Program-made: the position numbers and the translations under genes | Shown: piece after piece, positions 17,647-64,000 of the stretch | Numbering within the stretch: position 1 is the first letter of the stretch | Layout: each line of letters starts with the position of its first letter | Notes under the pieces: generated by a model | Databases searched by the model: none | What the model was told of the DNA's origin: nothing | The model's input: the letters and a program-made list of their open reading frames with translations, nothing else | Assembly: GCA_040767195.1 (NCBI GenBank) | Contig: JAXGPA010000001.1 | Coordinates: 448,001-512,000, forward strand | Direction of reading: 5' to 3' | DNA from: Syntrophales bacterium | GTDB lineage: Bacteria; Desulfobacterota; Syntrophia; Syntrophales; UBA6807 | Length of the DNA: 64,000 bases

Positions 17647-20600
17647 TTACTTCACCCCCTTCTTCTCGACATTCACCATGAACGCCTTGCTCTCCGGGAT
17701 CATGGTGTTCGGGTCCCCGATAAACGGGGTCAGGAGATTGGCCGCGTCGCCAAAAGTGTAGACTTCGGGTTTCTTGTCTTCATGGGCGTATTTCCGCATG
17801 GCCGTTGTTATCCATCCGTAATGCCACGGAATACCGACCTGGTGAATGATCTGCCCGCCGATGTTGAACGGCTTGAAACGGGCCGTCACGATGGTCACCG
17901 CCTCGACTTCGCCTCTGGCCGATCTGACCGTGACCACTTCCCCGTTTTTCAACCCCTTCAACTTGGCCAGCTCCTCGCTCATTTCGACGAACATGGAGGG
18001 CTGCATCTCCGCCAGCCAGGGGCACCAGCGGGTCATGAGGCCCGTCTGCCAGTGTTCGCTCACCCGGTAGGTGGAGCAGACGAAGGGGAACCGGGGATCG
18101 CAGGTCGCCCTGAGATCGAGTTCCGACCCTTCTTCGTCCCATCGCTTGATGGTCGGGTTGATGAACTGCGGTGAAAGCAGGTTCTTGTCGATGGGGCATT
18201 CCAGGGGCTCGTAGTGTTCCGGGAACGGACCGTCTGCCAGACCTGGCCCGAAGATGCTCCCCACGCCGTCGGGTTTCATGATGAAGGGCGGACGTCCCGC
18301 ACCGGGGGCCGCTACGCCGTCGGGAACGTCGCCGACCCACTTGGAGCCGTCCCAGACGATGACGGGATGTTCCTTGTCCCAGGGCTCCCCCGTCTCGGGA
18401 TCAACGGACGCCCCGTTGTAGATGATCCGCCGGTTGACAGGCCAGCACCAGGCCCACTCGGGATAGAGGCCGATGGGCGAGTGGTCCTCGCTGTTTCTCC
18501 GGGCGGCCATGTTGCCCTTTTCGGTGTATGAATTGCAGTAGAGCCAGTTCCCCGAAGATGTCGTCCCGTCGTCCTGGAGGAAGGCGAAGCTGGGAACCAG
18601 GGTCCCCTTCTTGTACAGGACACCGTTGATTTCCTTGTCTTCGAGAAAATAGCCGTTGATGGCCTTGGCGATGGCATGGCTGTCGAGATGCCGGATTTTC
18701 CCGTCAGGCCCCATGGGACCGTAATTCCAGGTGAGTTTCGTGATCGCCTCTTTCAGCGGGCCGCCTTCCTTCTCGTAAAGCTCCTTGACCTTGAAGAAGA
18801 GCTCGCTGATGAGTTCCCCGTCGGGCAGGGCCTCTCCGGGGGGATCGACGGCCTTGTACCGCCACTGCATCCAGCGGCCGCTGTTGGTGATGCTCCCTTC
18901 CTTCTCGATGGAAGCGGCGCAGGGCAGCATGAAGACTTCCGTCTTTATCTTCGCCGGGTCCATGCCGGGACCTTTCCAGAAGGAGCCCGTCTCGTTATCG
19001 AAAATGTTGACGTTCACCATCCAGTCCAGCTTGGCCATGGCCTGTCGCGTCTTGTTGGAACTGGCGCCGCTGCAGGCGGGGTTCTGACCCCAGGCGAAAA
19101 AGCCGGTGAATTCGGACTTGTACATGGCGTCGAAAAGACTGAGCCAGGAATAGTTCTTGCCGTCGTCGAGCTTGGGCAGATAGACGTAGGCCTCCTCGGG
19201 GGTGGCGTTCATACCGTAGAATTCCCTGAGAAGGCTCGTGATGTACTTGGGATAATTTTTCCACCAGTTGAGGCTCTTGGGCTCCGACGTCGTCGGCGGA
19301 ACCTTCTCGATGTATTCCTTCAGGGTGGGGATCGACGCCGTCGGGTTCTTGAGGTAACCGGGCAGAATGTGGAAGAGAAGGCACTGGTCCGTCGACCCCT
19401 GGACGTTGGACTCGCCCCGGAGCGCGTTCACGCCGCCGCCGGCGACGCCCATGTTGGCCAGAAGCATCTGGATGATGGACATGGTCCGGATGTTCTGGAC
19501 GCCCACCGTGTGCTGGGTCCAGCCCATGGCGTACATGATGGTCCCCGCCTTGCCTTTTTCTCCCGTTTTGGCATAGGCCTTGTAGACCTCCACCAGTTTG
19601 TCCTTGGGAGTCCCCGTAATCTCGGAAACGATCTCCAGGCTGTACCGGTCGTAGTGCTTCTTCAGAAGCTGGAACACGCAGTTGGGGTCCTGGAGGGACA
19701 TGTCCTTGACGATGACGCCGTCGGCTCCCTTCTGGAAAGCCCAGGTGGACTTGTTGTATTTCGTCCCCTCGAGACCGGAGAAGACCCCGTCATTTTCCCC
19801 GGGAAGCTTGAAATCGGGACCCACGAGGAAAGGGGCGTTGGTGTAGTACTTGACATATTTTTCGTTGTAAAGATTGTTTTCGATGATGTACTTGATCATG
19901 CCGCCGAGGAAGGCGATGTCCGTCCCCGACCTGAGGGGGGCATACATGTGGGCCCTCGCGGAGGTCTGGGTGAACCGGGGATCGACACTGATCAGGGTCG
20001 CCCCCTTGTCCATGGCCTTCTGGACGTACTTGAAGGATATGGGATGGTTGGAAGCGGGATTGCTTCCCATGGCCAGGATACAGTCACTGAACTGAATGTC
20101 GATCCAGTGATTCGTCATCGCGCCGCGTCCGAACGACTCTGCCAGAGCCGCAACCGTGGCGCTGTGTCATATCCGGGCCTGATGCTCGATGTAGACAAGG
20201 CCAAGGGACCGGAGAAACTTCTGGTAGATGAAGCACTCCTCGTTGTCCATGGCGGCGCTGCCCACGGAGGCGATACCGTTGGTCCTATTCACCGTCTGGC
20301 CCTTGGCGTTCGTCTCCGTGAAGCTCTTGTCCCGGCTCGCCTTGATCCGCTTGGCGATCTCGTCGAGAGCCCACTCCATGGACACTTCCTGCCAATCGGT
20401 GGCATAAGGCGCCCGGTAGAGCGGCTTATCGAGCCTGTTCTTGTTGTTCGCGGAAATCTGATAGATGGACCCGCCCTTGCTGCACAGGGAGCCCCGGTTG
20501 ATGGGGTGGTCGGGATCCCCTTCCGTGTTGACGACCTTCCCGCCCCGCGCGGACACGATGATCCCGCATCCCACGGAACAATAGGGGCAGATCGTGGTGG

Positions 20601-20727
20601 TTTCCCTGGCGTACTGGATCTTGAGCGGCTGCGCGTGGGCCGCCACGGGCTTCAGGTTGATTCCGAGCCCACCCGACACCAGTGCAGCGCTCGAGACTTT
20701 GAGGAAACCTCTCCTCGTTACCTCCAT
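17647..20727 (-). CDS. fdnG: Selenocysteine-containing formate dehydrogenase alpha subunit (1026 aa, Tat-exported; U187 encoded by TGA at 20167-20169)
   Basis: The 186-aa and 823-aa ORFs share a frame and join through EHQARI-U-HSATVAALAESFGRGAMTNHW, the canonical FdnG/FdhA Sec site. Tat motif TRRGFLK; CPYCSVGC...LCSKG; ALRGESNVQGSTD. Confidence 0.96.
20130..20166 (-). promoter_or_regulatory. Probable SECIS element of the FDH alpha gene
   Basis: Sequence after UGA is CACAGCGCCACGGUUGCGGCUCUGGCAGAG, at the position where fdnG-type SECIS elements lie. The exact fold was not resolved by eye. Confidence 0.55.
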
Positions 20728-48022: not shown

Positions 48023-49306
48023 TCACGACGCCCCGTTCCCGACCCCCTGGTCGGGCGGAAGAATCCTTACGACCCACAGGATCATCCCGACGAGAAAGAC
48101 GACCTGGGTTGCGGAAAGAAGAAAAAGACTCCATGTCACGTCTCCCGTCCAGATTCCGCCGGCGGCGACCGCCCCGAGGACGAGGGCTATCCCCGTCACG
48201 TTCAGGCCAAGCAGTTCCTTCTGCCGGTTGACAAGGAGGGGCACCTGGGACAGGGGGGCGAAGGCGAACCGGAGCATCATCCAGGGGGCGAGGATCCGGG
48301 CGTATTCCCCGGCCACCCGCCAGGGGCTTCCGAGAACGAAGGCGAACAGTTCCGGACCCCAGAGGAGAATGATGAGAAAAATAGGGGACGCCACCGCGAG
48401 CGCCCCCAGAAGGACCCGGACGGTGAGCTCCTTCAGGTTTTCATCTCGTGCCATCATTTCCGCCGCTTTCTGGTAGAAGACATGGGACAGGGCGCTCCCG
48501 ATGAAAGACAAGGGAACCGCGAGAATCCGAAATGTCCGGGAGTAAACCCCCAGGGACGCCTCGTCGAAATAATAGGCGATGAGGAAGCTGATCCCACTGT
48601 ACTGGGCCGTGTCGGTGAGAATGAACCACGTGTTCAGCTGGGGGAATTCGCGGTAGGACCGGGCGGCGGCCGTCATGTCCCGCCAGCTGGCTGGGAGAGA
48701 AGGTCCTTTCTTCCGGAAAAAACCAAAAAAAGCCAGGTGGGCCGCTGAAAGGGCCTGGCCCGCCACCTGGGCCAGGACGAGCCCCGACGCCCCCAGGCCC
48801 CCATATCCGGCGGCAACGCCGAGGCCGGCGTTGGACAGGCTCTGGGTCACCCGGGAGCCGGAGATCTGCAAGAAATCTTTTCTCCGAACTATCCAGTAGT
48901 GCAGGCTCTGGTAAATGCCGTAGAAAAAAACCACGACGGGCACGAGATAAAGATAGGGTGAAAGCCCGGGGCTCCCGAAAAGGCGGCAGATCGGCCCGTT
49001 GAATCCCGTCATGAGAAAGAGCGAAACGACCGAAACGAAGAGCGTGACCGTGACGGCCACCCAGAAGACCGGGGCGGCCTCCCTCTCCCCGGCGGGGATC
49101 ATGACGGCCATCTCGTAGCGCCCCGTCGCGACAACGGCAAAAAGGGTGCTGATGGAAATGAAGAGAGCCAGGATCCCGAACTCCTCCGGCCGGTACAGGC
49201 GGGTCAGGAAGGGCTCTGCCGCCAGGGGAATGACCTGGGCGACGGCATTCCCCGTAACCAGGGCCATGACGTTTCGGACAAAATCGGAGGAAAGAAGCTT
49301 TATCAC
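48023..49306 (-). CDS. wzx: Wzx-type oligosaccharide flippase
   Basis: Multi-TM MOP-family pattern: GNAVAQ...LTRLYRPEEFG, TGRYEMAV and WRVAGEYARIL. Confidence 0.85.
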   Translation of the reverse strand: MIKLLSSDFVRNVMALVTGNAVAQVIPLAAEPFLTRLYRPEEFGILALFISISTLFAVVATGRYEMAVMIPAGEREAAPVFWVAVTVTLFVSVVSLFLMTGFNGPICRLFGSPGLSPYLYLVPVVVFFYGIYQSLHYWIVRRKDFLQISGSRVTQSLSNAGLGVAAGYGGLGASGLVLAQVAGQALSAAHLAFFGFFRKKGPSLPASWRDMTAAARSYREFPQLNTWFILTDTAQYSGISFLIAYYFDEASLGVYSRTFRILAVPLSFIGSALSHVFYQKAAEMMARDENLKELTVRVLLGALAVASPIFLIILLWGPELFAFVLGSPWRVAGEYARILAPWMMLRFAFAPLSQVPLLVNRQKELLGLNVTGIALVLGAVAAGGIWTGDVTWSLFLLSATQVVFLVGMILWVVRILPPDQGVGNGAS

Positions 49307-49453
49307 ACAAACCGTCTCGACGATCGGTCGGGGCGCGGGCCCCGTGTCTGTAAAAATTCCACCTGGCCGTGCCGGCCCGGGTCCATTTCCAAACCGGGAA
49401 GGGCAGGCCTTTGCTGTGTCGTTTCATCGTGACCGGGCAGAGGCGAGGGTCCG

Positions 49454-51052
49454 TCACGAACCGGCTTTCTCCAAGCCCCCGGATGCCTTCCTGTAATCGA
49501 GACCGCACCCGGGGCAGCAAAGCCGGTCGTCCAGGGTCGTCCCGCAATCACAGACCCACCCCTTCAGCCTCGCCGGGTTTCCCGTGACGAGGCCATGGTC
49601 GGGAACGTTTCCGGTCACCACCGCCCCGGCGCCGACCAGGGCATACCGTCCGATGGTCACCCCGCAGACGATGGTGGCGTTCGCCCCAATGGTCGCCCCC
49701 TTTTTCACCACCGTCGCTCTCAGTTCATCCATTTTCCGGATCTCCGCCCGGGGGTTGAAGACGTTCGTGAAAACCATGGACGGGCCGCAGAAAACCCCGT
49801 CCTCCAGGGTCACCCCCTTGTAGACGCTCACGTTGTTCTGGATCCGGCACCGCGACCCGATGGTCACGTCGGGGCCGATGACCACGTTCTGACCGATATT
49901 GCAGCCCTCCCCGACGCGGGACCCGGGAAGAACATGGGAAAAATGCCACACCCGGGTCCCCTCTCCGATGAAGGCCCCTTTCTCGACAATCGCCGTGGGG
50001 TGGACGAAAGCCTTCACCGGCCGCTCTTCTTTTTGCCCGGGAGAGTCCGCTGCCCCCTTCCCGGCGAAGGGGACTTCCCGCCCCCCCTCGTCGAGGGACT
50101 GCTGGGATGCATTCAGGATCTGCAGAACCTTGAGCCCTTCCCGGCCGTCGGTCACCGGGGGTTCGCCCGTTTTGACGCTCCTGAGAAACTGAAGGCACTC
50201 GAGCTTCAAGGGTTCCGCCTCGTCGAGGGGGATGCGCTCCGCCTCCGCTTTCGAGGCCACGGGGACCTGGTTCCGCCACCGGATCTCGTGGGGATAGAGC
50301 ACCAGCTTGTCCGTCCAGGGCTGCGTGTCGTCGAAAACAGCCATCTTCCGGTCCCCCACGACGACGAGCTTCTGCTCCTTGAAAGGGTGGAGCCAGGAAA
50401 CGAAGATGTGGGCCCGAAGCCCCGAGGGAAAATGAAGGTGGGTCATGGTCACGTCGGCGATCTTCTGGTGGAGGTAATTCCCCCCGGTGGCGGAAACGCT
50501 TTCCGCCTCCTCTCCGGCCAGTCCGAGAATCATGGAGATGTCATGGGGGGCGAAAGACCACAGGGCGTTCTCCTCCCGCCGGATCTTCCCCAGGTTGAGC
50601 CGGTTCGAATAGATGTAATTCACCCGTCCCAACTCGCCGGCTTTCACGAGTTCTTTCAGACGGATGAAAGCGGGGTGATACTGAAGAAGGTGCCCCACCA
50701 TGAGGATCCGGCGGCCCGACGCCGCCAGGTCGATGAGTTCCAGGGCTTCCTCCTCACGGAGGACCAGGGGTTTTTCCACGAAGGCGTGTTTCCCCGCCAG
50801 CAAGACCTCGCGGACCACCGTGTAATGCGTTTCCGCCGGCGTCGCCACAACGGCGGCGGAAATGTCTTCTCGGGAAAGGACGTCGCTCACCGCCAGGACC
50901 CCCTTGACGCCGGGAAAAGCCGCTTCCACCTCCGCCAGGACGGCCTCATTCTTGTCGCAGACGAGGCGAAGGGCGCCCAGTTCATGAAAATTCCGGACCA
51001 GGTTCCGTCCCCAGTATCCCGCTCCGATGACGGCGATACCTGATGTTGTCAT
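49454..51052 (-). CDS. Gfo/Idh/MocA oxidoreductase fused to a hexapeptide N-acetyltransferase (WbpB/WlbA plus WbpD/WlbB-like)
   Basis: GAGYWG, VEKP and SFAPHDIS in the N-half; [54 protein letters not shown] in the C-half. Confidence 0.88.
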
Positions 51053-51146
51053 GGCAAGATCCTTTCACGTCATATCGGGAAAGATGAGACCCTGAAGAAC
51101 CGGTCGACCGTCTCAAGGGTTTCCCCTTGAAACGCCCCCAGGCTCA

Positions 51147-52154
51147 TCAATCTCCAAAAGGCTGAACCGCCGGGTTTTCCGCCGCTCTTCTCCTGATATG
51201 CGAACCGAAGAAAACGAAAGCGGTGAAAAACAACAGGAGCAGCAAAGTCACTGAAAAAAACCCATAAGGCTTCACGAGAAAAAGAAGGCTCCCGAGAATG
51301 ATCTGGACCATCCCGTAAAGAATGGAGATTTTCCAGTGGGCAACGCCTCTCTCGTTGGCCAGTACCTGGTACAGGTGCCGGCGGTGAGCCAGGAGGAGAT
51401 TTTCTCCCCGTCTCCACCGGATGAACAGGGTCGTCAGCACGTCAGCGTAAATGAGGCCGGCGCATCCGGACAGGACGGCGAAATCGAGGGGGCTCCCGGA
51501 CAGGATGATGACGAGCCCACCGTAGAGAAAACCGATAAGGATGCTGCCCACGTCCCCCATGAAGACCTTGGCCCGGGGAAAATTGAGGGGAAGGAATCCC
51601 AGGCACGCCGCCGCCAGGCAGAGGGCGAGCCGGAAATACAGGAGGTCGCCTCCTTCCGTATACACGAACAAGGCTGCGAATCCGAAAGAAACGGCACTGG
51701 ATAGGGCGAGCATCCCGTCGATACCGTCCATGAAATTGAAAAAATTGGCCGTGCCGACGATGTAAACGGAGGCGAAAAGGACGAAAGGAATGAGCAGCTC
51801 GGATCCAGCAGCCGGTCCCGCCAGGGGGAAGAAGGATAGAACAAAAACGGCCACGACGGCGAACTGGATGGCCAGGCGGAAGAGAGGGGAAAGCTTGAAC
51901 CAGTCGCCGTAAAGGCTGACGAGGGACAGGATGGCGGCGGGAAACCAGAGCCCGGGAGGAACCCGGAGATAGAGGGCGGCGAAAAGAAAGGCGGCCAGAA
52001 TACCCACACCGCCACCCGTGGGCATGGGGTCCCGGTGGGAACTTCTCTCCCCGGGCATGTCGATCAACCGTCCATTCCGGGCGAACTTCATGACGAGGAG
52101 GCCGCCGAGGGCGCTCAGGGTAATGCTGAGAAGATAAAGGGCCATGTCCGTCAT
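51147..52154 (-). CDS. MraY/WecA-family undecaprenyl-phosphate HexNAc-1-phosphate transferase (WbpL-like)
   Basis: RSSH..PTGGG, NFFNFMDGIDG, FMGDVGS and AHRRHLYQ. Confidence 0.9.
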   Translation of the reverse strand: MTDMALYLLSITLSALGGLLVMKFARNGRLIDMPGERSSHRDPMPTGGGVGILAAFLFAALYLRVPPGLWFPAAILSLVSLYGDWFKLSPLFRLAIQFAVVAVFVLSFFPLAGPAAGSELLIPFVLFASVYIVGTANFFNFMDGIDGMLALSSAVSFGFAALFVYTEGGDLLYFRLALCLAAACLGFLPLNFPRAKVFMGDVGSILIGFLYGGLVIILSGSPLDFAVLSGCAGLIYADVLTTLFIRWRRGENLLLAHRRHLYQVLANERGVAHWKISILYGMVQIILGSLLFLVKPYGFFSVTLLLLLFFTAFVFFGSHIRRRAAENPAVQPFGD

Positions 52155-53107
52155 GATGGAAGAAGTACCGTTTCCAGGCTGTGGGCGGGCCGGAAACCCC
52201 TATCGAGGAGCTTATCCGGAGAATAGGTCATGTCCTGGAAGATTTTCCCCCCCTGGGACCTGAGTGAGAAAAGGGGCCCCGCGGGAACCCGGCGGAAAGC
52301 CCGGTCCAGCAGTTGCAGAAAGCCTGACGGCACCGCAATCCCGGGAAGGGGGGCGAACAGACCCGATTTCCGGAAAACTCCCGTCATTTCGTTGAACGTG
52401 TAAGGCCGCCCGTCACAAAGATTGTAGACCTGAAATCCCTCGAAACGATCCCGGTTCCGGAGTATGAATTTTACCGCCCCGGAAACGTTCTGACGAGCGA
52501 GGGCGGACATCTTCTGTTCGCCCGACCCGTAACGGACATAGGCGATCCGGCCGGGAACCATGATCCTTCTTTCGAGATTCCGCGTCCAGTCCCGGTCGTA
52601 ACAGGGGGCGAGACGAAGGATGAGGGCTTTTCGAAGAAGGTCCCGGTCGTAAAGATCCCGAAGGCATTTTTCGCCATACCGTTTGCTCTTTCCGTTAATC
52701 CCCGACGGCCGGCACGGATCTTCTTCGACGATGGGCCCCCGTTTACCTCCCATCCCGTAAACGGAAACGGAAGAAAGGAAAATGAAAAAAACCCCGGGGT
52801 TGACACGGGCGGAAAGGGCGCCGAGCCTCTCCGACACGAGACCGTTCATCTCCATGCAGCGCCTGTCGTTTTTTCGAAGCCATCTCCCCGTTTTCAGGCC
52901 GGCTCCGTGAATCACCACGTCCGGCCTGATCTTTTCAAGCATGTTCGTCATTGCAAAAGGATCGCGAAGATCCACCCGCATCCAGGGGATGTTCAAAGCT
53001 GGTGGAACGTGGGCATGATAGGTCCCCGTCACGTCGTGACGGGAAGAAAGATCTCTGCAGAGGGCGCTTCCGATGAACCCGCTGCCGCCGGTAACCAGGA
53101 TTCTCAT
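52151..53107 (-). CDS. NAD-dependent epimerase/dehydratase-family protein (catalytic Tyr apparently replaced)
   Basis: TGGSGFIG and FLSSVSVYG, but the YxxxK position reads NGKSK. Confidence 0.8.
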   Translation of the reverse strand: MRILVTGGSGFIGSALCRDLSSRHDVTGTYHAHVPPALNIPWMRVDLRDPFAMTNMLEKIRPDVVIHGAGLKTGRWLRKNDRRCMEMNGLVSERLGALSARVNPGVFFIFLSSVSVYGMGGKRGPIVEEDPCRPSGINGKSKRYGEKCLRDLYDRDLLRKALILRLAPCYDRDWTRNLERRIMVPGRIAYVRYGSGEQKMSALARQNVSGAVKFILRNRDRFEGFQVYNLCDGRPYTFNEMTGVFRKSGLFAPLPGIAVPSGFLQLLDRAFRRVPAGPLFSLRSQGGKIFQDMTYSPDKLLDRGFRPAHSLETVLLPS

Positions 53108-54021
53108 CGTTTTACCGGATTCAATTTTCTGCGTCTTATCATGTGGTAGAGGGAAACAACACCCAGACGGGCGGCGAGGATGGGAAGAATGACAGGCCCC
53201 AGAATGAATTTGGGGATCTTCGCGTTCTTCGCCACGAGCCGCCAGCAGCTCTTGTGGAACTCATAAATGGAGGGGAAAAGGCGTTTCTCGCTGCTCCCGC
53301 CGACGTGGTGGATTACCGACACCAGGGGAAAATAAACAACTTTCCATCCTGCCTGCCACATTCTCCCGCAAAGGTCGACATCCTCCCAATACATGAAGAA
53401 ACGCTCATCAAGGAAACCCACCTCATCGAGGACCTCTTTCCTTACCACCATGCACGCTCCGGAAACCCAGTCCACCGGCATGGGGGTTTTCCCATCGCAA
53501 CGGTCATGGATCATGTTTTTCCGGGAAACGGGGTTGTTGGGAAACCAACGGGTCAGAAAGGAATTCCGGCCGAAAAGGGCCGTCAGGGGCGTCGGAAAGG
53601 TACGGGCGGAACCCTGGATCGTCCCGTCGGGATTCATGATCCTTGGGCCGAGAATGCCCACCTCTCGATGTTCCCTCATGTAGGCCTGAATGCCGTCGAA
53701 AAAATTCGGCCGGAGGACCGTGTCGGGATTCAGCAGGACGACGAGGGGAGACCGGCATTTCGAGAGAAGGGCATTGACGGATCTCGAATACCCTTCATTG
53801 CGCGGCGCCCGTTCCATTTCGATCCCGGGATACTGACAGGTGACTCTCTCCGTACCGTCCCGTGACGCGTTGTCCCGGACGTAAACGTGAAGGGGAATAC
53901 CGTTTGGGGCCTCGTGGATCGACTTGAGACATTTCAGAAGATAGTCCGTGCTGTTGAAGTTGACGATCACCACGTCGATGGGAGAATTGTCATGGATCTC
54001 TCTTCCATCTTCGCAAATCAT
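53104..54021 (-). CDS. GT2 glycosyltransferase (WbbL-like)
   Basis: DNASRDGT, LLNPDT, VDWVSGAC and FDE-like FLDERFFMYWEDVDLC. Start uncertain; the ORF track gives 54099. Confidence 0.88.
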   Translation of the reverse strand: MICEDGREIHDNSPIDVVIVNFNSTDYLLKCLKSIHEAPNGIPLHVYVRDNASRDGTERVTCQYPGIEMERAPRNEGYSRSVNALLSKCRSPLVVLLNPDTVLRPNFFDGIQAYMREHREVGILGPRIMNPDGTIQGSARTFPTPLTALFGRNSFLTRWFPNNPVSRKNMIHDRCDGKTPMPVDWVSGACMVVRKEVLDEVGFLDERFFMYWEDVDLCGRMWQAGWKVVYFPLVSVIHHVGGSSEKRLFPSIYEFHKSCWRLVAKNAKIPKFILGPVILPILAARLGVVSLYHMIRRRKLNPVKR

Positions 54022-54059
54022 GCGGAATCTTACCCCCCGTTTCAAAACCGCCGGCCCGT

Positions 54060-55088
54060 TCAAAAGGCGGCGATCCTCGTCGCCCCGCGGGATCGACAAA
54101 GCCTTCTAACGGATTCTTCCCTGAAGAGTCCCCAGATCTGCCGATTCGTGAGAATCCTTTTTTTCTGAATCTGCTTCCTTTTATTCAGCATTTTCGGAAA
54201 GCCCCGCAGAGCATCGAATTTCGCCCTGAGGAAGGTGAGGCCTCTCCCCCGAAGCGTAAAAAAAAGCAGGGAACCTATACCATAGAACAGGTGCAGATGG
54301 ATAGTCCGAAAAATGAGCGCTGCCGGCATGTTTTTCAGGTACACCCATTCGAGGTTCCTGTGGCCGTAATAAACGGATACCGGCGAATCCCGAACAATGG
54401 ATGCGCTGGTCCCGTGGAAAACGACGGCATCGGGAACATAAATGCAGCCATAGCCCCGAAGCTGGGCCCGGAAACTCAGGTCGACATCCTCATGAAGGAT
54501 AAAGAAATCGTTATCGAAAAGCCCGATGTTTTCCAGCATGGCCGACCGGTAGAGAGCGGCACCGGCGCAGGCGCCGAAAACCCATTCCTCCTCGCCGAAG
54601 CGCCCGGCATCCTCACCCCGGCCCCTCAGCCAGCCGTTCCCGGCTGTCGTATAGCCGTCGCCGGCCCGGTCGATGACCGTCGGCCGGTCCCGGAAGAGCA
54701 TCTTGGAGGCGGCGAAGCCGGCCCGGGGATGTCTTTCCAGAGCTCTTAGCAGGTTTTTCAGCCACGACGGGTGGGGAATGGCATCGTTGTTCAGCAGGGC
54801 CACATATTCCGTTCCAACCCGCTCCAGGGCCCTGTTGTTTCCTTCGGCAAATCCGAGATTCCGCCTGAACGGCAAGATCTCGACTTCCGGAAACGCCTGC
54901 TCGACGAATTCCACGGAACCGTCCTCGGAGCCGTTGTCCACGAGGAGAATCCGGACGCCGGGAACATCCTGGCGCCGAAGAGCGCCGAGACAGTCTCCCA
55001 GGAAACGTTTCCCGTTCCAGTTCACGACAATGACGGTGATGAGAAAGTCTCCATTGTCCGGTATGACGGCGCTTCCCTTCCGATTCAC
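54060..55088 (-). CDS. GT2 glycosyltransferase
   Basis: VVNWNG, VDNGSEDGS, NLGFAEGNN, LLNNDA and FDNDFFILHEDVDLSFR. Confidence 0.9.
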   Translation of the reverse strand: MNRKGSAVIPDNGDFLITVIVVNWNGKRFLGDCLGALRRQDVPGVRILLVDNGSEDGSVEFVEQAFPEVEILPFRRNLGFAEGNNRALERVGTEYVALLNNDAIPHPSWLKNLLRALERHPRAGFAASKMLFRDRPTVIDRAGDGYTTAGNGWLRGRGEDAGRFGEEEWVFGACAGAALYRSAMLENIGLFDNDFFILHEDVDLSFRAQLRGYGCIYVPDAVVFHGTSASIVRDSPVSVYYGHRNLEWVYLKNMPAALIFRTIHLHLFYGIGSLLFFTLRGRGLTFLRAKFDALRGFPKMLNKRKQIQKKRILTNRQIWGLFREESVRRLCRSRGATRIAAF

Positions 55089-55321
55089 GGCAATCGTCCC
55101 CTGTTTTCAGGGAAAATAATGGATAGCATACCAAAAACGATTCGTTTTCGAAACGGTTTACATCGAAAAACGGAAAAACCTGCCCGGAGAGATGTAAGAG
55201 GAATATCAAAACCGGTCTTCGGTTCTGCCCTGCCGATGAAATGTCCCGACGGCTCAACAGGACCGAAGGGGAGCAGGATCTTCCGAAAACCCCGCTCCCC
55301 CTTTCCCATGTTATCTGTCCA

Positions 55322-57460
55322 TCACAGGCCGGGCAACGCGTCCAGCATGGATCCGTCTCTCGAGGCGTTCAGCTGGAAAGCGGCGACCGTCCCCGTGGAA
55401 GAAATCACCAGGTAAGTCGCCTCGGAAACAGAATTCCCGAAGAACTCCGACGGCTTGATGATGATTTTCCCTCTGGCCTCGAGACCGGTTGACTTCACCG
55501 CCACTTTCCCGCCTTCGTCGTTGAAGAGTTCCACGGTGAGCGTGGCCGCTTCGCCGTCGATGTTGACGACCCCGATCCCCGTTGCCCCGTCTTTTTCCAT
55601 TTTCGGCAGGATGGCCGTCAGCCCGTCGATGTTGAGGGTCTCGTGACAGGCCGCCAGGTTCACCCGGCGGAAGAAAGTCAGGCCTGTCACGGGAACGGGG
55701 GACGTGACTTCGAACCACCCGGCTTTTTCCGGAAGGGTGAAGGCCCCCGGGTACCGGAGGTTTATGGAGCTTTCCCCTTCGATGGACAAAACACTTTCCT
55801 CAAGGGGCTCTCCCCCGTCGCCGTAAGGCTTGATCGTGATGTCGCAAGACTCCCCGGATGTGTTGAAAACAACGCAATCCGTTTCCCAGCCGTTTTCACC
55901 CGCCACATGCACATTGTACAGGGCAAAGCCCCCGTCGTCCTTGAGCGGGATTCCTCCCAGCTGCCGCCCCCGGGCAAACAGGGCGACCCCTATGACGCCG
56001 TCGCCGTTTTCGATGACCGCCGACGAGAGGGACGGCCGGGGCCGCCCGTCGAAGAGCTCCCTGATGGAGAAGGCCCGCTGGTGAAGGGATTCGAGGATCA
56101 GGCTCTTTTTCGTCCCATCGTTGAACGCCATGGTGATGACCCGGCGTTCCCGGGACGTGTTCAGCAGGGCGAGCCCCGTCGCCGCCTGTTCGTTCGATTC
56201 GACATGGGGAAGGAAAAGGGGGCCCTGGTTGATGTCGCTGTTCCTGAAGGCCGGAGAAGCCGCCCGGCAGACACCTTCAAGAAACCACTTGGCATATCCC
56301 GCCACGGTCTCCGACGGGCTCGTAAAAACCGCGTAACGGACCTGGCCGGCGCTCTCGAACCCCGAACCGGGATCCCCGGCAAGGACTTCGAACCGTCCCC
56401 TGGGAGGGAGATCAACCGCTATTTCGGACACATATTCTCCGTCGTCCCGGTAACCGATGAGGACACCCTCCAGGGGGTCTTCGGCGCTTGTGTTGATGAT
56501 GGCTATTTCCGTCTCCCACCGCCCGTCGCTGACCACATAGGGGAAGTGAACGAGCTGGATGTCCTCGCAGGCCTCGATGTCCGACGCCCAGGCGACCATC
56601 CCGCCCTGCATGACATACACGAGAGGATAGCCCATGGAATCGAGAAAGCGGCCCGCCCGGTCAGCCCGGACACCGGATCGGCAGATGAGGAGGACCGGTC
56701 TGTTTTTCTGCAATTCCCCATATCTCAGCTGGAAGACCCCGGAATTCCAGGGATAATTCACGGAACCCGGAATGTGTCCTGAACAGTACTCGCTTGCTTC
56801 CCGGACGTCGACGGCCTGAACGTTTCCCGACGTCTGCATCATGACCTGGGCTTCTTCCGGCGTTATGGTGGAATGAACCAGAGGAAGGAAGTTCGCCTGC
56901 ACATTTTTTCTCGAATCGACGACAAGATCCGACGGGTTGGCGCTTCCATCCAGATCACCGGACCACTGGTCGAACCGGTATCCAGTCGCGGGAACGGCTT
57001 CGACCCGGGCCGTCGCGGGGGACGGAAAGGAAATCGTCCCGGGATAGGCGCTGATGAGGCTGCCGTTGACCTTCACCTGCCCTCCCCCGGACGGATTCAC
57101 GGAAACGGTCAGTTCCAGGATGGGGGCAAAAACGGCCGTGACGGTTTTCTGGCAGTTCACGTACAGGATGGCCGGATTGGCGCTGCCCGTCAGGTCGCCG
57201 GCCCAATGGTCGAAACGATATCCCGCACCGGGAACGGCCTGAATCTGAACGTTCCGGCCAGAGGAAAAACTGACATAGTAGGGAAAGGAAGAGACGGAAG
57301 CCCCGTCAATCCTCACGGTTCCACTGTTTTCGGGGCTGACATACACGGTCAGGCCAAGGCTGCTTCAGGCCCCTTCCGCCACCCCGGCGGCCGTTAAAGA
57401 GTAAACGAAAATCCATGCCACAAGAATTGACATGAGAACAAGAGCTCTTTTTCCTTTCAT
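55322..57460 (-). CDS. Secreted multidomain protein (signal peptide, in-frame UGA at codon 32, two InlB B-repeat-like modules, rhodanese domain, four beta-rich repeats); candidate selenoprotein of 712 aa
   Basis: ATG 57460 with an AAAGGGA SD gives MKGKRALVLMSILVAWIFVYSLTAAGVAEGA-TGA(57365-57367)-SSLGLTVYVSPENSG, in frame with the 674-aa ORF. Repeats A.P..GYRFD.W.GDL.GSANP; rhodanese DVRE..EY..GHIPGS, CRSGVR and GGMVAW. Confidence 0.8.
57334..57355 (-). promoter_or_regulatory. Candidate bacterial SECIS hairpin
   Basis: GG(C)CUGAC-CGUGUAU-GUCAG-CC stem-loop. The loop begins 17 nt after the UGA and has GU at loop positions 2-3. Confidence 0.65.
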
Positions 57461-57507
57461 AAAGACACGTTCCCTTTCAGATCGAGATTTCTGCGTTTTC
57501 TTAAATT

Positions 57508-57921
57508 TTATGGATGGTCATCCATGACCATGAGATCCTCGAGGGTTGTCTCCCGAAGGATCTCATCCGTTGTTTTCTGGATTTTCATCCACAGCGTCCT
57601 GGTTTTGCAAGAACCGGACCGGGAGCACCGGTCCCCATTCCCGACACAGTCCGCAACAACCGTGGATCCTTCCATCACCCGAAGGACGTCCATGATCCGG
57701 ATGTCCCGGGGACGCCTGGCCAACTCGAACCCGCCCCGGGACCCCCGGACGCTCCGGACGAAACCCGCCGCTTTCAGCCTGTTGAAGAGTTGTACCAGGT
57801 AGAGGCCCGAGATCTCCTGCCTTTCTGAAATATCCCGAACGACAACGGGACCCGTTCCGGACCGGAGAGCCAGGTCCAGCAGGGCCCGGACGGCGTATCG
57901 ACCCTTCGTCGAGAGATTCAA
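57508..57921 (-). CDS. Rrf2-family transcriptional regulator with three-Cys Fe-S motif (IscR-like)
   Basis: STKGRYAVRALLDLA, SVRGSRGGF and CVGNGDRCSRSGSC..LW; TTG start with SD. Confidence 0.9.
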   Translation of the reverse strand: MNLSTKGRYAVRALLDLALRSGTGPVVVRDISERQEISGLYLVQLFNRLKAAGFVRSVRGSRGGFELARRPRDIRIMDVLRVMEGSTVVADCVGNGDRCSRSGSCKTRTLWMKIQKTTDEILRETTLEDLMVMDDHP

Positions 57922-58168
57922 GACAACACCCCCTTTCCTGATATATGACTATCATGATAAGGTTTGTCTTCATTAACCCAACCGGAATCCTCTGTCAAGG
58001 AAAACGCCGACGCACCCGGTCCGTCCGTCTTTCCCGCCTTCCCCGGAAAACGGAAAAAATCATTGTCATATTTCTTTGGATTGAGTAAGAAGAGACATCT
58101 GCCGGCTGTCCCGGGAAAGCGGCTATTCTCCGGCTCTTCGCGAATTCGCCGAGGAAGGCGTTAAGAAG

Positions 58169-58816
58169 GTGCACCAGAGTTCTCTCGACAACATGCGTTC
58201 CTTCAGGGACCGGTACCTGGAGCCCCTGAGAGAGAAGCCCCTGACGATTCTCGACGTGGGAAGCATGGACATCAACGGCTCCTATCGGGACTTGTTTGAC
58301 AGCCCTCCCTGGCATTACCGGGGTGCCGACATGGCGGAGGGGAAAAACGTGGACCTTGTGCTGAGGGATCCCCATGCCTGGAAAGAGATCCCCTCCCGGT
58401 CCCTGGACGTGGTGATTTCCGGCCAGGCCCTCGAACACATGGCCTTTTTCTGGATCGTCATTCTGGAAGTCGAGCGGATTCTGAGGCCCGGAGGATTCTT
58501 CTGCCTCATCGCCCCGTCGGGCGGACCGGCCCATCGCTATCCCGTCGACTGCTGGCGGTTTCTTCCCGATGGATTTTCAGCCCTTGCCGCCTACGCAGAC
58601 CTGGAGATCCTCGATGCCTACGCCACGTCGGACCGGTTCCCACCATACGGGGACTCGAGCCGGGCATGGAACGACACCGTCGTTATCGGGAAAAAGCGGC
58701 AGTATTCCCGGCTTCGCAGGTGGAAAAAGGCGACCCTCAGGACCCTTCTACACCGCCTGCTTATCCTCCAGGTGGCGAACAGGGAAAAAAAGAAAACGGC
58801 ACCCGGTGAGATCTGA
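58169..58816 (+). CDS. Class I SAM-dependent methyltransferase
   Basis: ILDVGSMDINGSYR, DVVISGQALEH, RILRPGG and HRYPVDCWRF. Confidence 0.88.
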   Translation: MHQSSLDNMRSFRDRYLEPLREKPLTILDVGSMDINGSYRDLFDSPPWHYRGADMAEGKNVDLVLRDPHAWKEIPSRSLDVVISGQALEHMAFFWIVILEVERILRPGGFFCLIAPSGGPAHRYPVDCWRFLPDGFSALAAYADLEILDAYATSDRFPPYGDSSRAWNDTVVIGKKRQYSRLRRWKKATLRTLLHRLLILQVANREKKKTAPGEI

Positions 58817-58818
58817 CC

Positions 58819-61800
58819 ATGCATGACTTCTGGGACGTCATCATCAAACCCATTTTCGACCTTCTCCATCCCGCCGTCGTCGTTGAAATCGGCAGCGGGC
58901 AGGGAAAGAACACGGAAAATCTCATTCAATACGCTGCAAGGCACGACGGGGTTGTTCACGCCGTCGATCCCTGTCCCGATTTCCCCGCCGATGAATGGGA
59001 ATCCCTTCACGAAAACCACTTCGTGTTCCATCGAAGCCTGAGCCTGAGCGCCCTGGAAAAAATCCCGCCGATGGACGTCGTTCTCATCGACGGGGACCAC
59101 AACTGGTACACGGTCATCAACGAACTTCGGCTGATCGACAAGATCAGTCTCTCGCCGGGACGGGAGTTTCCCGTCGTCTTTCTCCACGACATCGGGTGGC
59201 CTTACGGGCGGAGAGACCTCTATTACAATCCCGAGAACATACCGGAACTGTTCAGAAAACCCTACCAGAAAAAAGGGCTGAAGCCGGGAGAATCGGACCT
59301 CCTCGACGAGGGCGGGCTGAATGCCCACCTGTTCAACGCCCTTTACGAAAACAGCCTGCAGAACGGCGTCCTGACCGCCGTCGAGGACTTCCTCAAGGAA
59401 ACGGCCCGGGACCTCTCGTTCTTTTCCCTGGCCGGCTTTCACGGACTGGGCATTCTCGTCCCGAAGGAACGGCTGAACCGGGAAGAGCGGCTCGGGGAAT
59501 CCATTTCCCGGCTCACCTCTTCGGAAGAGATGAGAAAATATATCGAACACCTGGAGCATGAGCGCATCCTTTCCGAAATCGGCCGGAGCGAGACGAAGCA
59601 GAGGCTCGAAACGGCGTCGGGCCGCCTGGAAGAGGAAAAAAAGAAAGCGGCTGGGCTGAGAAAAGACCTGAACGACCAGCGCATCGATCATGAAAGACAA
59701 ATCCGGGACATCCGCCAGGAACACAAGGAGGCCATGAGGGACATGGCCCGGGCCATGGAAAAGGAGAAGCAGGAACACGAGGCCTTCCGAAAGGCCCGGC
59801 TCCGGGAACTGAACAAGGTTCTCTCGGAAAGAGATCTCCTGATCCGGTGGCTCGACCAGGCGTCCTCGGGATACGACGCCCTGCTTACATCGCGGAGGTG
59901 GAAAATGGGCAACCGGATCGGGGAATTTCTCAGAAAGGCAGCTTTCCGTCCCCCCGTTCCCCTCGTGTCGGATCGGATCAGCCGTATCTTCGGCGATTTT
60001 CGCAAGTGGGAACAGAAAGGGTTCACCAAAATAACCGATGAGAGCCTAAAAAAAAAACAGATCGCCCGGTCCCTTTTTCTGAATGACGGGGCTTCCCGAA
60101 ACCCGGAAGGCCGATCGGCCGCCGATTTCTACGGGGAGACCCTCTTTCCCGTCACGGCACGGCGACGGTCCGAAAACGTATCCGAAATCCTCTCCTTTCT
60201 GCGGTCGCCGTCGATCACGGTGATCGTCCCTGTTTTCAACGCTCCCCGTGACACGGCAAAATGCCTTGACGCGCTTCTGCGGTACACGTCCCTCCCCTGC
60301 GAAATTCTCGTCATCGACGACGGCAGCACCGATCCCGAAACGATCGACGTGATCGGCCGCGCGGGCCGTCATCCCTTCGTCCGCGTCATCCGGAACGACC
60401 GCAACCGGGGATTTGTCGAAACGCTGAACCGCGGTCTCGAGGAATCGACGGGCGATGTGGTCTGCCTGAACAGCGACACGGCGGTGACGCCCCGCTGGCT
60501 GCAGAAACTGGTCCTCGCCGCATATTCCGATCCCCGGGTCGCGACGGTCACCCCTTTCTCCAACGCCGCCGGCGCCTTTTCCGTGCCGGAAATCGGCGTA
60601 AACAGGGAGATCGATCCCCCTTTCACCCTGACGGGGATGTCCCGCATGGTCGAAAGGCTTTCCGCGAACGATTACCCGAAGGTCCCCACGGGAAACGGGT
60701 TCTGCCTCTATATCAAGCGGTCCGCCATCGGGGACGTGGGCCTTTTCGACAGCGTCCGCTTCGGCAGGGGATACGGGGAAGAAAACGATTTCTCCATGCG
60801 GGCCCTGAAGAAAGGCTGGACCCACGTTCTCGACGACGCCTCCTTCGTCTATCACCGCCGGGGGGCCTCTTTCTCGGAGGAAAAGGAGGTCCTGGCCGAA
60901 AAAAACAGGAAAGTCCTGGACGAACTTCACCCGGAATACACGTCCCTGGTCCGGACGTTCGTCGCCTCACCGGAAATCGCCGAAATCCGGAGCCGCATCC
61001 GGCGGGGCGGCTTCCAGGAAGGCAAGATGGACTTCGATTCCCTCCGTATTCTCTTCGTTCTGCAGGAAGGCATGGGGGGAACGCCGGCGACGAACGAAGA
61101 CCTTCTCCGGTGCCTGGGACATCGTCACGAATGCTTTGTTCTCACGTCCGACTCCAGGCGTCTGAAACTGACATACCACCGGAACGGACGGAACACGGAA
61201 CTGTGGTCCCACACCCTCAAGTCCCGGTGGTCGGCCAAATCCTTCCATGTCCGGGAACTGGAAGAGTTCTATTTCACGATCCTGACCCTGTTGAAGATCG
61301 AGGTCGTCCACGTCCGCCATCTCTTCAAGCACAGTTTCGACATCGTCAGCCTCTGCCGGCTTCTCGGACTGCCCGTGGTCCTTTCCTTCCACGATTACTA
61401 CCTGGTGTGCCCGAGCATCCACCTCCTCGACGAAAGAAACCACTGCTGCCACGGAGACTGTTCCGAAACAGCCGGCCCGTGCCGGATACCGACGCCTCTC
61501 CTGGACGACATTTCCGACCTTCGGGGATTTCTCCCGTCCTGGCGCGACGAGGTCCGGAAACTCTTCGACGGCTGCCGGGCCTTCGTCACCACGTCTCCTT
61601 TCGCCAGATCCATCTATGTGAAGAATTTTCCCGAGCTCGAGGAAAGAGATTTCCGCGTCATCGAACACGGAAGGGATTTCGCCGACAGGAAAGACAGGGC
61701 CCCCGGTCCTGCCGCGGGCGGGCCCATGAAGCTCCTCATTCCCGGGAATCTGGACCGGCACAAGGGATCCGATTTCATCAGGAAGCTCCATGAAACGGAC

Positions 61801-63333
61801 AGGGACGGCGTCATCGAATTTCACTTCATGGGACGGATACCGCCGGAACTGGCCGCCTTCGGGACCAATCACGGCGTCTACGAACGGGAGGATTTCATAC
61901 GGAAAGTCACGGAAATCGATCCCCATTTCATCGGGATTTTTTCCATATCGCCGGAAACGTACTGTCATACCCTTACGGAGGCGTGGGCCAGCGGCGTTCC
62001 CGTCCTGTCTTCCGACACGGGCACCGTCGCCGAGCGCATCGGTCAGCACGGCGGCGGCTGGCTTCTGGATCTCGGGGACGTTCCGGCCTGCTACGAGAAA
62101 ATATGCCACATCTTCCGGGACCGGGAGGCTTACGGAAGCATCCGGGAAGAAACGGGGAAAATTCCCATCAAGACGGTGGCGGACATGGCGACGGAATACG
62201 AGGAGACGTATTACCGTGTCCTTCACGGCGGGAAAGACCTGTCGAAACCCTACCGGAGCCTGGCCCTTCTGACGCCCCGGGGGACTTTCGGGTTTCCCGG
62301 GTCCTCCTATGTCCGCACCCTCCTGCCCCTGCAGCATCCCGTGTTCCGGGAAGCGTTCTTCACCTACGTGGTCAACCCCGATCAGCTGAAAGAGAAGCGG
62401 CTGGCGGAGATGGCGGCGGAAAAACGGATCGACTGTTTCGTCATCCAGAGAAACGCCGTGACGGCCGAAGAGTTCGCCTACCTGGCCACCCTGTCGGAAA
62501 AGGAGAAAATCCCCATTGTTTTCGAGATCGACGACAACATCCTGGACATGGATCCCTCCCACCCCGAACACGGTCACTACGGTCCCCAGAAGGAACTCCT
62601 CACCGCCCTGTGCCGCAGGGCCCATCACGTCACGGTAAGCACGGAGGCCCTGAAAGACGCTCTCGGGCCATACAACAACAGCATCTCGGTAATCCGAAAC
62701 GCCCTCGAAGAAAAGCTGTGGTTCAGCCCCCGGACGGTCCTGCCGAAACCGGGAGGGGAGAAAACCCTCACCATCGGTTACATGGGCTCGGTGACCCATG
62801 ATGCGGACCTGGAAATCCTCAGGACGGTTATCCCCCGGGTCCAGAAGGTCCTGAGGGAGCAAAAGGGGATCCATGCGGAATTCCAGATCGTGGGGGGCAT
62901 GCGGGACGGTCTTTTGAGAAGCCGCTGGTACACGAGGATCCCCGTGCCAAGCGGTTGCGAGAGTTACCCCCTCTTCGTGGACTGGCTGCGAAAGCAGGGC
63001 CCCTGGGACATTGCCGTCGCGCCCCTGGCCGACACGGAAATCAACCGGGGAAAAAGCGAACTCAAGTATCTCGAATACGCCGCCCTGGGGTCTCCGGGGG
63101 TTTACAGTCCCGTCGGAGGATACGCCGATACGGTCCGGCACGGGGTTACGGGGCTTCTGGCAACGGGAAACGACGAAGAGGCCTGGGTCCGGTGTCTTCT
63201 CGAACTGGCCCTCGATGCCTCCCTCCGGGAGAAATTACGGGCTGCCGCCCGGGAGGACGTGATCCGTCGATACCTTCTGAAAGACCGGGTCGCCGAGTGG
63301 CGGGATTTTTTTCACAGGGTCCTCGGTCACTGA
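58819..63333 (+). CDS. 1504-aa multidomain protein: methyltransferase, coiled coil, GT2 and two GT4-like glycosyltransferase modules
   Basis: VEIGSGQG..LIDGDHNWYTV..HDIGWPY; E/K/R-rich heptad segment; IVPVFN..IDDGS..LNSDT..GYGEENDF; HDYY..ETYCHTLTEA; FEIDD..KSELKYLEY. Confidence 0.88.
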   Translation: MHDFWDVIIKPIFDLLHPAVVVEIGSGQGKNTENLIQYAARHDGVVHAVDPCPDFPADEWESLHENHFVFHRSLSLSALEKIPPMDVVLIDGDHNWYTVINELRLIDKISLSPGREFPVVFLHDIGWPYGRRDLYYNPENIPELFRKPYQKKGLKPGESDLLDEGGLNAHLFNALYENSLQNGVLTAVEDFLKETARDLSFFSLAGFHGLGILVPKERLNREERLGESISRLTSSEEMRKYIEHLEHERILSEIGRSETKQRLETASGRLEEEKKKAAGLRKDLNDQRIDHERQIRDIRQEHKEAMRDMARAMEKEKQEHEAFRKARLRELNKVLSERDLLIRWLDQASSGYDALLTSRRWKMGNRIGEFLRKAAFRPPVPLVSDRISRIFGDFRKWEQKGFTKITDESLKKKQIARSLFLNDGASRNPEGRSAADFYGETLFPVTARRRSENVSEILSFLRSPSITVIVPVFNAPRDTAKCLDALLRYTSLPCEILVIDDGSTDPETIDVIGRAGRHPFVRVIRNDRNRGFVETLNRGLEESTGDVVCLNSDTAVTPRWLQKLVLAAYSDPRVATVTPFSNAAGAFSVPEIGVNREIDPPFTLTGMSRMVERLSANDYPKVPTGNGFCLYIKRSAIGDVGLFDSVRFGRGYGEENDFSMRALKKGWTHVLDDASFVYHRRGASFSEEKEVLAEKNRKVLDELHPEYTSLVRTFVASPEIAEIRSRIRRGGFQEGKMDFDSLRILFVLQEGMGGTPATNEDLLRCLGHRHECFVLTSDSRRLKLTYHRNGRNTELWSHTLKSRWSAKSFHVRELEEFYFTILTLLKIEVVHVRHLFKHSFDIVSLCRLLGLPVVLSFHDYYLVCPSIHLLDERNHCCHGDCSETAGPCRIPTPLLDDISDLRGFLPSWRDEVRKLFDGCRAFVTTSPFARSIYVKNFPELEERDFRVIEHGRDFADRKDRAPGPAAGGPMKLLIPGNLDRHKGSDFIRKLHETDRDGVIEFHFMGRIPPELAAFGTNHGVYEREDFIRKVTEIDPHFIGIFSISPETYCHTLTEAWASGVPVLSSDTGTVAERIGQHGGGWLLDLGDVPACYEKICHIFRDREAYGSIREETGKIPIKTVADMATEYEETYYRVLHGGKDLSKPYRSLALLTPRGTFGFPGSSYVRTLLPLQHPVFREAFFTYVVNPDQLKEKRLAEMAAEKRIDCFVIQRNAVTAEEFAYLATLSEKEKIPIVFEIDDNILDMDPSHPEHGHYGPQKELLTALCRRAHHVTVSTEALKDALGPYNNSISVIRNALEEKLWFSPRTVLPKPGGEKTLTIGYMGSVTHDADLEILRTVIPRVQKVLREQKGIHAEFQIVGGMRDGLLRSRWYTRIPVPSGCESYPLFVDWLRKQGPWDIAVAPLADTEINRGKSELKYLEYAALGSPGVYSPVGGYADTVRHGVTGLLATGNDEEAWVRCLLELALDASLREKLRAAAREDVIRRYLLKDRVAEWRDFFHRVLGH

Positions 63334-64000
63334 ACCCCAAGAAAGCGGGCCAGGATCCGCCGGAATTCCTCCGCCCGGTGGGCATACGTGTGAGCCGCCA
63401 CGATTCTCTCCCGGGCCTCCCGCCCCATGGCCGACCTTTTTTCCCCGTCGTGAAGAAGATCGAGAAGTTTTCTCCTGAAATCGGATCCGTCCCGATAGGT
63501 CGTTACGCCCCCCCCGAACAGCTCCTCGAGGCCGGGCGTTTCATTTGAAAGAACGCACGCGCCGCAGGCCATGGCTTCGAAGATGCGGCTGTTGAGACAG
63601 CCCCAGGGCCGGCACATGGGCGTGCAGTCCTCCAGGACGACCCTGGAGGAATTGTATATCTTCGGAATTTCGGAGTGATCCGCCACCCCCCGGTGGTATT
63701 TCCGCAGCCACAGGGAGGGAAGATCCAGCCGGCCGTAAAAGCGAAAATCCGTTCCCGGGGGCACGGCGAGAACCCGGCAGAAGTCCCTGTCCCCGTCGAA
63801 CACGTTCCCCACGAAGGACAGGTCGGAAAGGTATTGGGGATCCGGCGGTCCGGGGTGAAAAAGATCCGTGTCGGCGGCGAGCGGGAGCACGCCCCCCCGT
63901 TTTCCGGGGTCGATACCGGTCATGACGCGATCCAGCGCTTTTTCCGATGTGGCCAGCACCAGGTCGTAGTCGCGAAACCAGGGCCGGCTCCGCCATTCCT
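63327..64000 (-). CDS. CgeB-like glycosyltransferase (5' part off the right edge)
   Basis: PLAAD, DLSFVGN, NSRIFEAMACGA and HTYAHRA; the frame stays open to the window end. Confidence 0.8.
   Translation of the reverse strand, partial: EWRSRPWFRDYDLVLATSEKALDRVMTGIDPGKRGGVLPLAADTDLFHPGPPDPQYLSDLSFVGNVFDGDRDFCRVLAVPPGTDFRFYGRLDLPSLWLRKYHRGVADHSEIPKIYNSSRVVLEDCTPMCRPWGCLNSRIFEAMACGACVLSNETPGLEELFGGGVTTYRDGSDFRRKLLDLLHDGEKRSAMGREARERIVAAHTYAHRAEEFRRILARFLGVQ

Follow-up and report, generated by a model that had tools for sequence, protein, structure and literature searches.

We describe what is almost certainly a widespread family of exported selenoproteins that annotation has systematically missed, recognized from a gene on the minus strand of the analysed window (64,000 nucleotides of a Syntrophales bacterium genome, G000). 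Read through its single internal UGA, the gene would encode a 712-aa exported protein in which codon 32 is almost certainly selenocysteine (Sec). The same layout, a signal peptide followed by an in-frame UGA and a divergent InlB B-repeat, was found in 58 distinct domains, some of them near-copies, from at least 36 genomes and metagenome contigs with Desulfobacterota-type and Dehalococcoidia hosts. Sulfate reducers, syntrophs and Dehalococcoidia are among these hosts, and in such organisms the chemistry of sulfur and metals at the cell surface is important. Judging from sequence, we lean towards the view that the family's Sec domain is a portable, surface-displayed Se/S head group, with Sec at mature position +1 to +3. 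It should be noted that the inferences differ in strength: recoding is strongly inferred, and processing, pairing and function follow in falling order.

The open reading frame as called comprises 674 aa, starts at a GTG (57346) and has no signal peptide. An ATG at 57460 lies in frame, 38 codons upstream, and the frame from this ATG to the TGA at 55322 has a TGA at 57367-57365, codon 32, as its sole internal stop (Table 1). What the first-pass annotation had listed here is present, namely the upstream ATG with a Shine-Dalgarno sequence (a modest one), a typical signal peptide and a single interruption; the same is true of the Cys that distinguishes repeat 1 from repeat 2 and of the CRSGVR loop of the rhodanese-like domain. 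Pfam identifies two Flg_new_2 repeats (PF18998; 69.5 bits versus a cut-off of 23.6) and one rhodanese, in which C226 and C298 are conserved and probably form a disulfide. The C-terminal 412 residues were modelled as tandem beta-sandwiches, one of which is predicted to resemble T. maritima TM1070, and the genome contains three regions paralogous to it. A search for promoter-like sites of the gene found none, and terminator-like sites were no more numerous than chance. The gene is surrounded (48023-63959) by glycosyltransferases, methyltransferases and sugar enzymes of a surface-glycan locus, of which the protein may be a substrate.

Table 1. Features of the Sec-repeat gene and related positions in the window
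Feature	Positions	Strand	Basis or remark
Formate dehydrogenase alpha, UGA at 20169	17647..20727	-	supports Sec use, separate from the gene
C-terminal all-beta region, about three tandem sandwiches, then true stop TGA	55322..56560	-	predicted structure
Rhodanese-like domain, loop Cys C260 in CRSGVR	56582..56863	-	Pfam; optional across the family
Repeat 2, PF18998, Cys-free	56888..57109	-	Pfam
Repeat 1, divergent InlB B-repeat PF18998, Sec-bearing domain	57122..57355	-	Pfam and predicted structure
C103, predicted partner of Sec32	57152..57154	-	in repeat 1
SECIS-type hairpin, core CUGAC/GUCAG, loop CGUGUAU 17 nt after UGA	57334..57355	-	overlaps codons L36-S42
In-frame TGA, codon 32, predicted selenocysteine at mature position +2	57365..57367	-	sequence and conservation
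Signal peptide, codons 1-30, predicted type I cleavage A-E-G|A-U	57371..57460	-	inferred from the rule of small residues at -3/-1
Shine-Dalgarno-like AAGGGA, modest	57471..57476	-	10 nt before ATG; sequence
Rrf2-family regulator, directly upstream, same strand	57508..57921	-	Rrf2 also upstream of the orthologue in L056

The TGA is supported by sequencing: in all four runs checked (as contigs rather than raw reads; three are DNA runs, from three other studies, and the fourth is an RNA run from the possible source study), contigs cover codon 32 with the TGA unchanged, and every difference lies elsewhere. The contig from the RNA run spans codon 32, which does not by itself demonstrate transcription. 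In one strain, a base of the hairpin loop is changed, with G-U retained. The expectation that standard pipelines truncate such genes was borne out, because among the cluster members listed (15 of 30 and 8 of 8) all have at most 675 aa, and the 10 whose sequences were inspected in their entirety all begin after the UGA. Since the genes are called without a signal peptide, the exported proteins look cytoplasmic.

The UGA is not a lesion, because the layout of signal peptide, UGA and repeat recurs in the 58 domains, and neither TAA nor TAG was found at this site in any of them. As the reading of the first-pass annotation requires, homologues carry TGA or Cys at codon 32, and not Trp, Arg, Gly or Ser. 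The signal peptides of the 58 domains are unrelated to one another. Outside the species, P0003 (43% identity) is the one cluster of full-length homologues; its gene call starts from the same residue, again lacking a signal peptide, and it keeps C103; the DNA behind it (L056) encodes a different signal peptide, then TGA. Among 80 metagenome loci taken blind to TGA, eight show the signal peptide-TGA-repeat layout (three from the same species, five from distant lineages) and none has TAA or TAG. When 401 genomes of the phylum were searched with a profile, a TGA-bearing gene ranked first after the window gene. Scanning the species-genome collection with a DNA pattern produced 65 hits, of which 22 were true (from records named Desulfobacteraceae, Desulfobacterales, Desulfonema, Deltaproteobacteria, Dehalococcoidia and Chloroflexia); the scan required the hairpin and is biased towards hairpin-bearing loci. 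The other 43 hits, chance matches without a signal peptide or repeat, were dropped. In 301 and 351 further genomes, profile searches that took no account of TGA or hairpin added more UGA domains, with 60 loci and 20 regions examined among the matches. One locus, L265, is excluded from the 58, its contig ending inside the signal peptide.

Homologues with Cys in place of Sec are few (L252, A-G-C-C; the second gene of L297, A-A-C-Q-C), and multi-repeat proteins dominated the results of both the representative search and the second search for homologues, neither of which returned a Cys homologue. No orthologue of the window gene was found among 60 relatives with the query used, and the ESM Atlas returned B-repeat clusters only. 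When the genome was scanned for read-through genes with a codon model, shadow frames dominated the output and the codon-32 site ranked 2059th of 13058, which made the scan uninformative. Some genomes have five or six copies of the family (G467, G942). Tandem paralogues (L297, L303, L298, L300) include three and two Sec copies in a row, as well as Sec copies directly followed by a Cys-only paralogue.

The second line of evidence is the hairpin. In the window copy, the 7-nt loop CGUGUAU begins 17 nt after the UGA and has G-U at loop positions 2-3. The first-pass annotation called this hairpin clean; its geometry and conservation hold, and the adjective does not, since the window hairpin by itself is weak (five perfect pairs, seven with a bulged C) and among the weakest of the family. 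The 78-nt fold has z = 0.92, equal stability being reached in 170 of 200 shuffles, and the free energy over the UGA and the next 45 nt, -7.8 kcal/mol, is close to the limit of -7.5. The weight of the window hairpin thus comes from conservation across the family and not from its own fold. In the SECIS consensus given in PMC13188914, a stem of 4-16 bp carries a loop of 3-9 nt whose first two positions include G, at a distance of 16-37 nt from the UGA; consistent with this, all 58 domains have a stem of at least 5 pairs and, 17-26 nt downstream, a loop of 4-7 nt with G among its first two nucleotides.

The thresholds of this hairpin test were set after the data had been seen, and the stem overlaps the conserved L-T-V-x-V-S codons; therefore, codon choice was tested by synonymous recoding. 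Recoded sequences passed in 13.8% of cases, i.e., 8.0 of 58 domains expected versus 58 of 58 observed. Sites outside the DNA scan pattern passed in 22 of 22 cases, and TGAs ending long frames in this genome in 156 of 1518. Among repeats with the same peptide, the seven that follow a UGA fold at -7.8 to -12.7 kcal/mol and the 19 without UGA at -7.7 to 0. Within the 7-nt-loop class (33 rows), pairing is kept in 98.5% of cells, and six cells have two-sided changes, in three of the six pairs, versus 0 of 500 shuffles; related rows make these shuffle counts optimistic, and they are counts, not probabilities. Two domains with longer linkers (L071, L249) have other hairpins at the same spacing. From these sequence comparisons, we regard the family hairpin as a SECIS element.

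The hosts generally appear able to decode Sec. A tRNA-Sec was detected in 20 of 21 and 13 of 14 host genomes (33 of 35; two of the 13 are weak, at about 52 bits), and selA in 19 of 21. This genome has selA and selB above the cut-off, and in four of its formate dehydrogenase genes the Sec site is a UGA; one of these genes is inside the window, as the first-pass annotation had stated. Outside the window, positions C8:137755, 151971 and 157662 and C7:85796 of this genome mark further formate dehydrogenase genes, of which three have UGA and one has Cys. In G727:C26 and G669:C7, the distance between the Sec-repeat gene and tRNA-Sec is about 2 kb and 7 kb, respectively.

The alternative is that the UGA is a true stop or encodes another residue, so that the gene would be a pseudogene, would produce a regulated short peptide with re-initiation at the in-frame GTG 57346, or would have UGA read as Trp, Gly or Cys. 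Of the four sel genes proposed for checking, selA and selB are there, whereas selD was not found in this assembly and selC is represented by a 3' remnant of tRNA-Sec only (G000:C1:720241-720283), which resembles an attachment site left by an integrated element. The missing genes and the weak window hairpin would fit this alternative. However, the assembly also lacks any tRNA-Ser or tRNA-Asn, as well as close matches to the genes that neighbour selD in its sister G001, a genome with both selD and tRNA-Sec, so that the missing selD and selC are probably an assembly gap. Moreover, the site never has TAA or TAG, the window gene and others end in TGA, such that UGA is not reassigned wholesale, and the hosts have the Sec machinery; no tRNA-Sec was detected in the incomplete genome G712, the only one with a Cys homologue and no Sec copy seen. 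We consider a stop or another residue very improbable, and the conservation of UGA and hairpin across the family supports the original proposal of Sec at the mature N-terminus of an exported protein.

With Sec at codon 32, the type I cleavage pattern places the residue at +1 to +3 in 58 of 58 domains. A seleno-lipoprotein, with Sec replacing the lipobox Cys as the lipid-bearing residue, might be suspected from A or G before the UGA in 56 of 58 domains and G after it in 38 of 58 (a preference partly imposed by the scan pattern), and from lipoprotein look-alikes in Dehalococcoidia that combine G-C-G-G with the same repeat (L305-L307). Nevertheless, we reject lipidation as extremely improbable, because 1 of 58 domains fits the lipobox, and the window protein is not that one. 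In addition, charged residues occur within the last seven positions in 41 domains, the end of the hydrophobic core is mostly 4-14 residues earlier, the residue before the UGA in L263 is Q, and many members have a C-terminal anchor of their own.

The Sec domains differ from other repeats in their cysteines. At least one Cys is present in 56 of 58 Sec domains (exactly one in 53; L109 and one gene of L219 have none), compared to 7 of 39 later repeats in the same proteins and 108 of 327 other repeats. Ordinary InlB B-repeats have no Cys or mostly even numbers (none in 219, two in 51, four in 18 and one in 30 of the 327), unlike the Sec domains. Relative to Sec, the partner lies at +1 to +3 in 14 domains, +24 to +43 in 23, +59 to +69 in four, and +71 and beyond in 15, including the window protein. 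It moves between five position classes, with 14 changes on a weakly resolved tree, some of them inside supported clades. If the UGA is Sec, its pairing with the partner Cys is very likely, as judged from this distribution. The choice of C103 as partner is supported, in that a Cys is kept at this position in the orthologue with 43% identity and in 14 more domains; strict co-variation did not hold, the partner being elsewhere in 41 of 58.

Repeat 1 of the window protein was modelled with a pLDDT of 95.6; its first strand starts at residue 6, and C103 is in the turn before the last strand. The beta-grasp fold assumed at first was not confirmed. The best structural matches of the model are CnaB-type domains (5u6f, 7w6b, 6bbt; Z 6.9-7.2, rmsd 2.4-3.1 over 74-84 residues), followed by weaker matches to adhesion-domain NMR structures (2kyw, Z 6.0; 2kvz, Z 5.0). 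Foldseek gave no match to the model at E <= 0.001, and a sequence search found no clearly related solved structure (best E 9e-5). The CnaB-type pilin and adhesin domains share the stalk role; at 5-14% identity, a Z under 8 may reflect a common arrangement only, and we claim no isopeptide or thioester chemistry. In CnaB-type domains, the first and last strands are neighbours, and cross-links between them are used. From strand order and the CnaB likeness, the N-terminus would lie beside C103 in the fold of repeat 1.

These cross-links also favour a structural role, in which a Se-S staple pins the N-terminal tail to the domain in place of a disulfide and withstands strongly reducing, sulfidic habitats. 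Sec together with one Cys gives an even count, like that of other repeats, and the partners at +24 to +43 and at +71 and beyond (38 of 58) map to the N-terminal pole by strand order. On the other hand, the adjacent partners (UC, UxC, UxxC; 14 of 58) would staple little, 32 of 39 later repeats are Cys-free and need no cross-link, Sec is confined to the first repeat across the family, and the minimal members (L109, L226, L257, L271, L272), which consist of a signal peptide, the Sec domain and an anchor, have nothing else to display. We consider a head group likely when set against a staple, and a staple as the main role of Sec is rather unlikely.

Our preferred reading, the displayed head group, can be stated as a sequence of steps. 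SelB acting on the hairpin would insert Sec at codon 32, as conservation suggests; after export, signal peptidase I would leave Sec at mature position +2. The first repeat would then fold with its N-terminus beside C103, and the Se/S pair would form either a selenenylsulfide or a two-ligand site. Across the family, the functional unit would be this one domain, a reactive Se/S head group capping the outer end of a repeat stalk, the stalk being anchored by a C-terminal helix or GGCF tail, or the domain joined to cargo domains. Thiol/sulfane exchange or soft-metal binding at the cell surface would be its likeliest actions. More tentatively, Sec may have a non-enzymatic surface role, as a genetically encoded selenol carried by a portable module at the tip of adhesin-like stalks in anaerobic Desulfobacterota and Dehalococcoidia; equally tentative, and taken jointly with that role, is its use in covalent Se-S exchange with partner cells or with mineral or organic sulfur, or in extracellular capture of soft metals, e.g., mercury. 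Members of 116-124 residues make a role of Sec outside enzymes and outside the cell directly testable.

The first-pass annotation had linked Sec to the rhodanese of the same protein, for which it might serve as a relay of sulfane sulfur or selenium. The loop Cys is kept in the window protein, L056, L057, L267 and one domain of L196, and an Rrf2 gene lies upstream in two lineages. The link is not general, however: rhodanese occurs in 16 of 58 (some loci stop before the gene end), the loop Cys is present in five of these and missing in 11, repeat 2 sets the two domains apart, and members of similar architecture have no rhodanese (L212, L214). A relay serving the rhodanese of the window protein is accordingly very improbable. 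Other cargo behind the Sec domain includes PKD repeats, more B-repeats and the C-terminal region. A rhodanese-like subfamily without the loop Cys, with a conserved H-x-x-C-A-x-N, follows the Sec domain in L169, L172, L177, L185, L188, L202, L206, L270, L274 and L304. Gly-rich C-termini ending in G-G-C-F-I (L186, L188, L206, L271, L272, L299) are probably sorting signals, of the CFI-box type; the GGCF tail had no NCBIfam match at E 0.001.

We conclude that the UGA repeat proteins are a new selenoprotein family with a new kind of site within a known mechanism, and not a new system. The predicted site differs in kind from those of catalogued families: Sec would stand at the N-terminus that cleavage frees on a structural repeat, and its partner Cys has been relocated many times in evolution. 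In fdhF/FdhA-type genes, which also have a coding-region SECIS, Sec is in a catalytic motif, whereas here it would be at the mature N-terminus of a non-enzymatic repeat domain, with the hairpin written into first-strand codons. Rhodanese-like selenoproteins, forms 1-5 (PF00581; NF041203 LYCAU; NF045694 TsoB), likewise combine rhodanese and Sec in one chain; however, the Sec of the window protein is about 170 residues before the rhodanese and not within it, most family members have no rhodanese, and the window protein scores 17.3 versus a cut-off of 115 and 20.6 versus 805 with the rhodanese selenoprotein models of NCBIfam. Divergent InlB B-repeat proteins (PF18998 Flg_new_2; TIGR02543) are exported stalk proteins that share the repeats above the Pfam cut-off, and the literature searched gave no description of Sec in them. 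The exported selenoproteins SaoB, SaoX and SaoC have signal peptides, Sec near Cys and a proposed metal-binding S/Se cluster, with ABC substrate-binding folds or a C-terminal CU and one conserved operon (bioRxiv 10.1101/2022.07.06.499078); the family described here has, instead, a beta-sandwich repeat, an N-terminal Sec, no conserved operon and no NCBIfam match.

None of the 119 selenoprotein families in Table 1 of PMC13188914 (2026) is a repeat protein of this kind; the families of Haft and Tolstoy 2025 and deep-Sep were compared as given in that table. No NCBIfam 20.0 model scored above its cut-off for the UGA repeat family. The literature searched, including PMC13326102 (BSepDB) and PMC1976440, yielded no account of it, and supplements and GenBank annotations could bear on novelty.

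The neighbours of 28 family loci form no shared operon and indicate no substrate. Pfam analysis of 27 chosen neighbours gave hints only: ArsP-type permeases near L071 and L229, a bile-acid/arsenite-type transporter near L168, and Fe-S flavoproteins near L169, L188 and L202. In two genomes, another exported protein that shares the C-terminal region of the window protein carries a TGA in frame at the equivalent position (G000:C1:516861, minus strand, about 5 kb past the window end, and L056:729-731), in the contexts FWDDLFACGT-U-GDK and LWSNLNPTGV-U-GDP, with similar downstream RNA. It had no match in Pfam or NCBIfam and possibly represents another uncatalogued selenoprotein family at the same locus. 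A further exported gene at G000:C1:525503 (minus strand) has a TGA (LTPVRG-U-GG) and a 7-bp hairpin, and presumably resembles the catalogued UshA-like selenoproteins.
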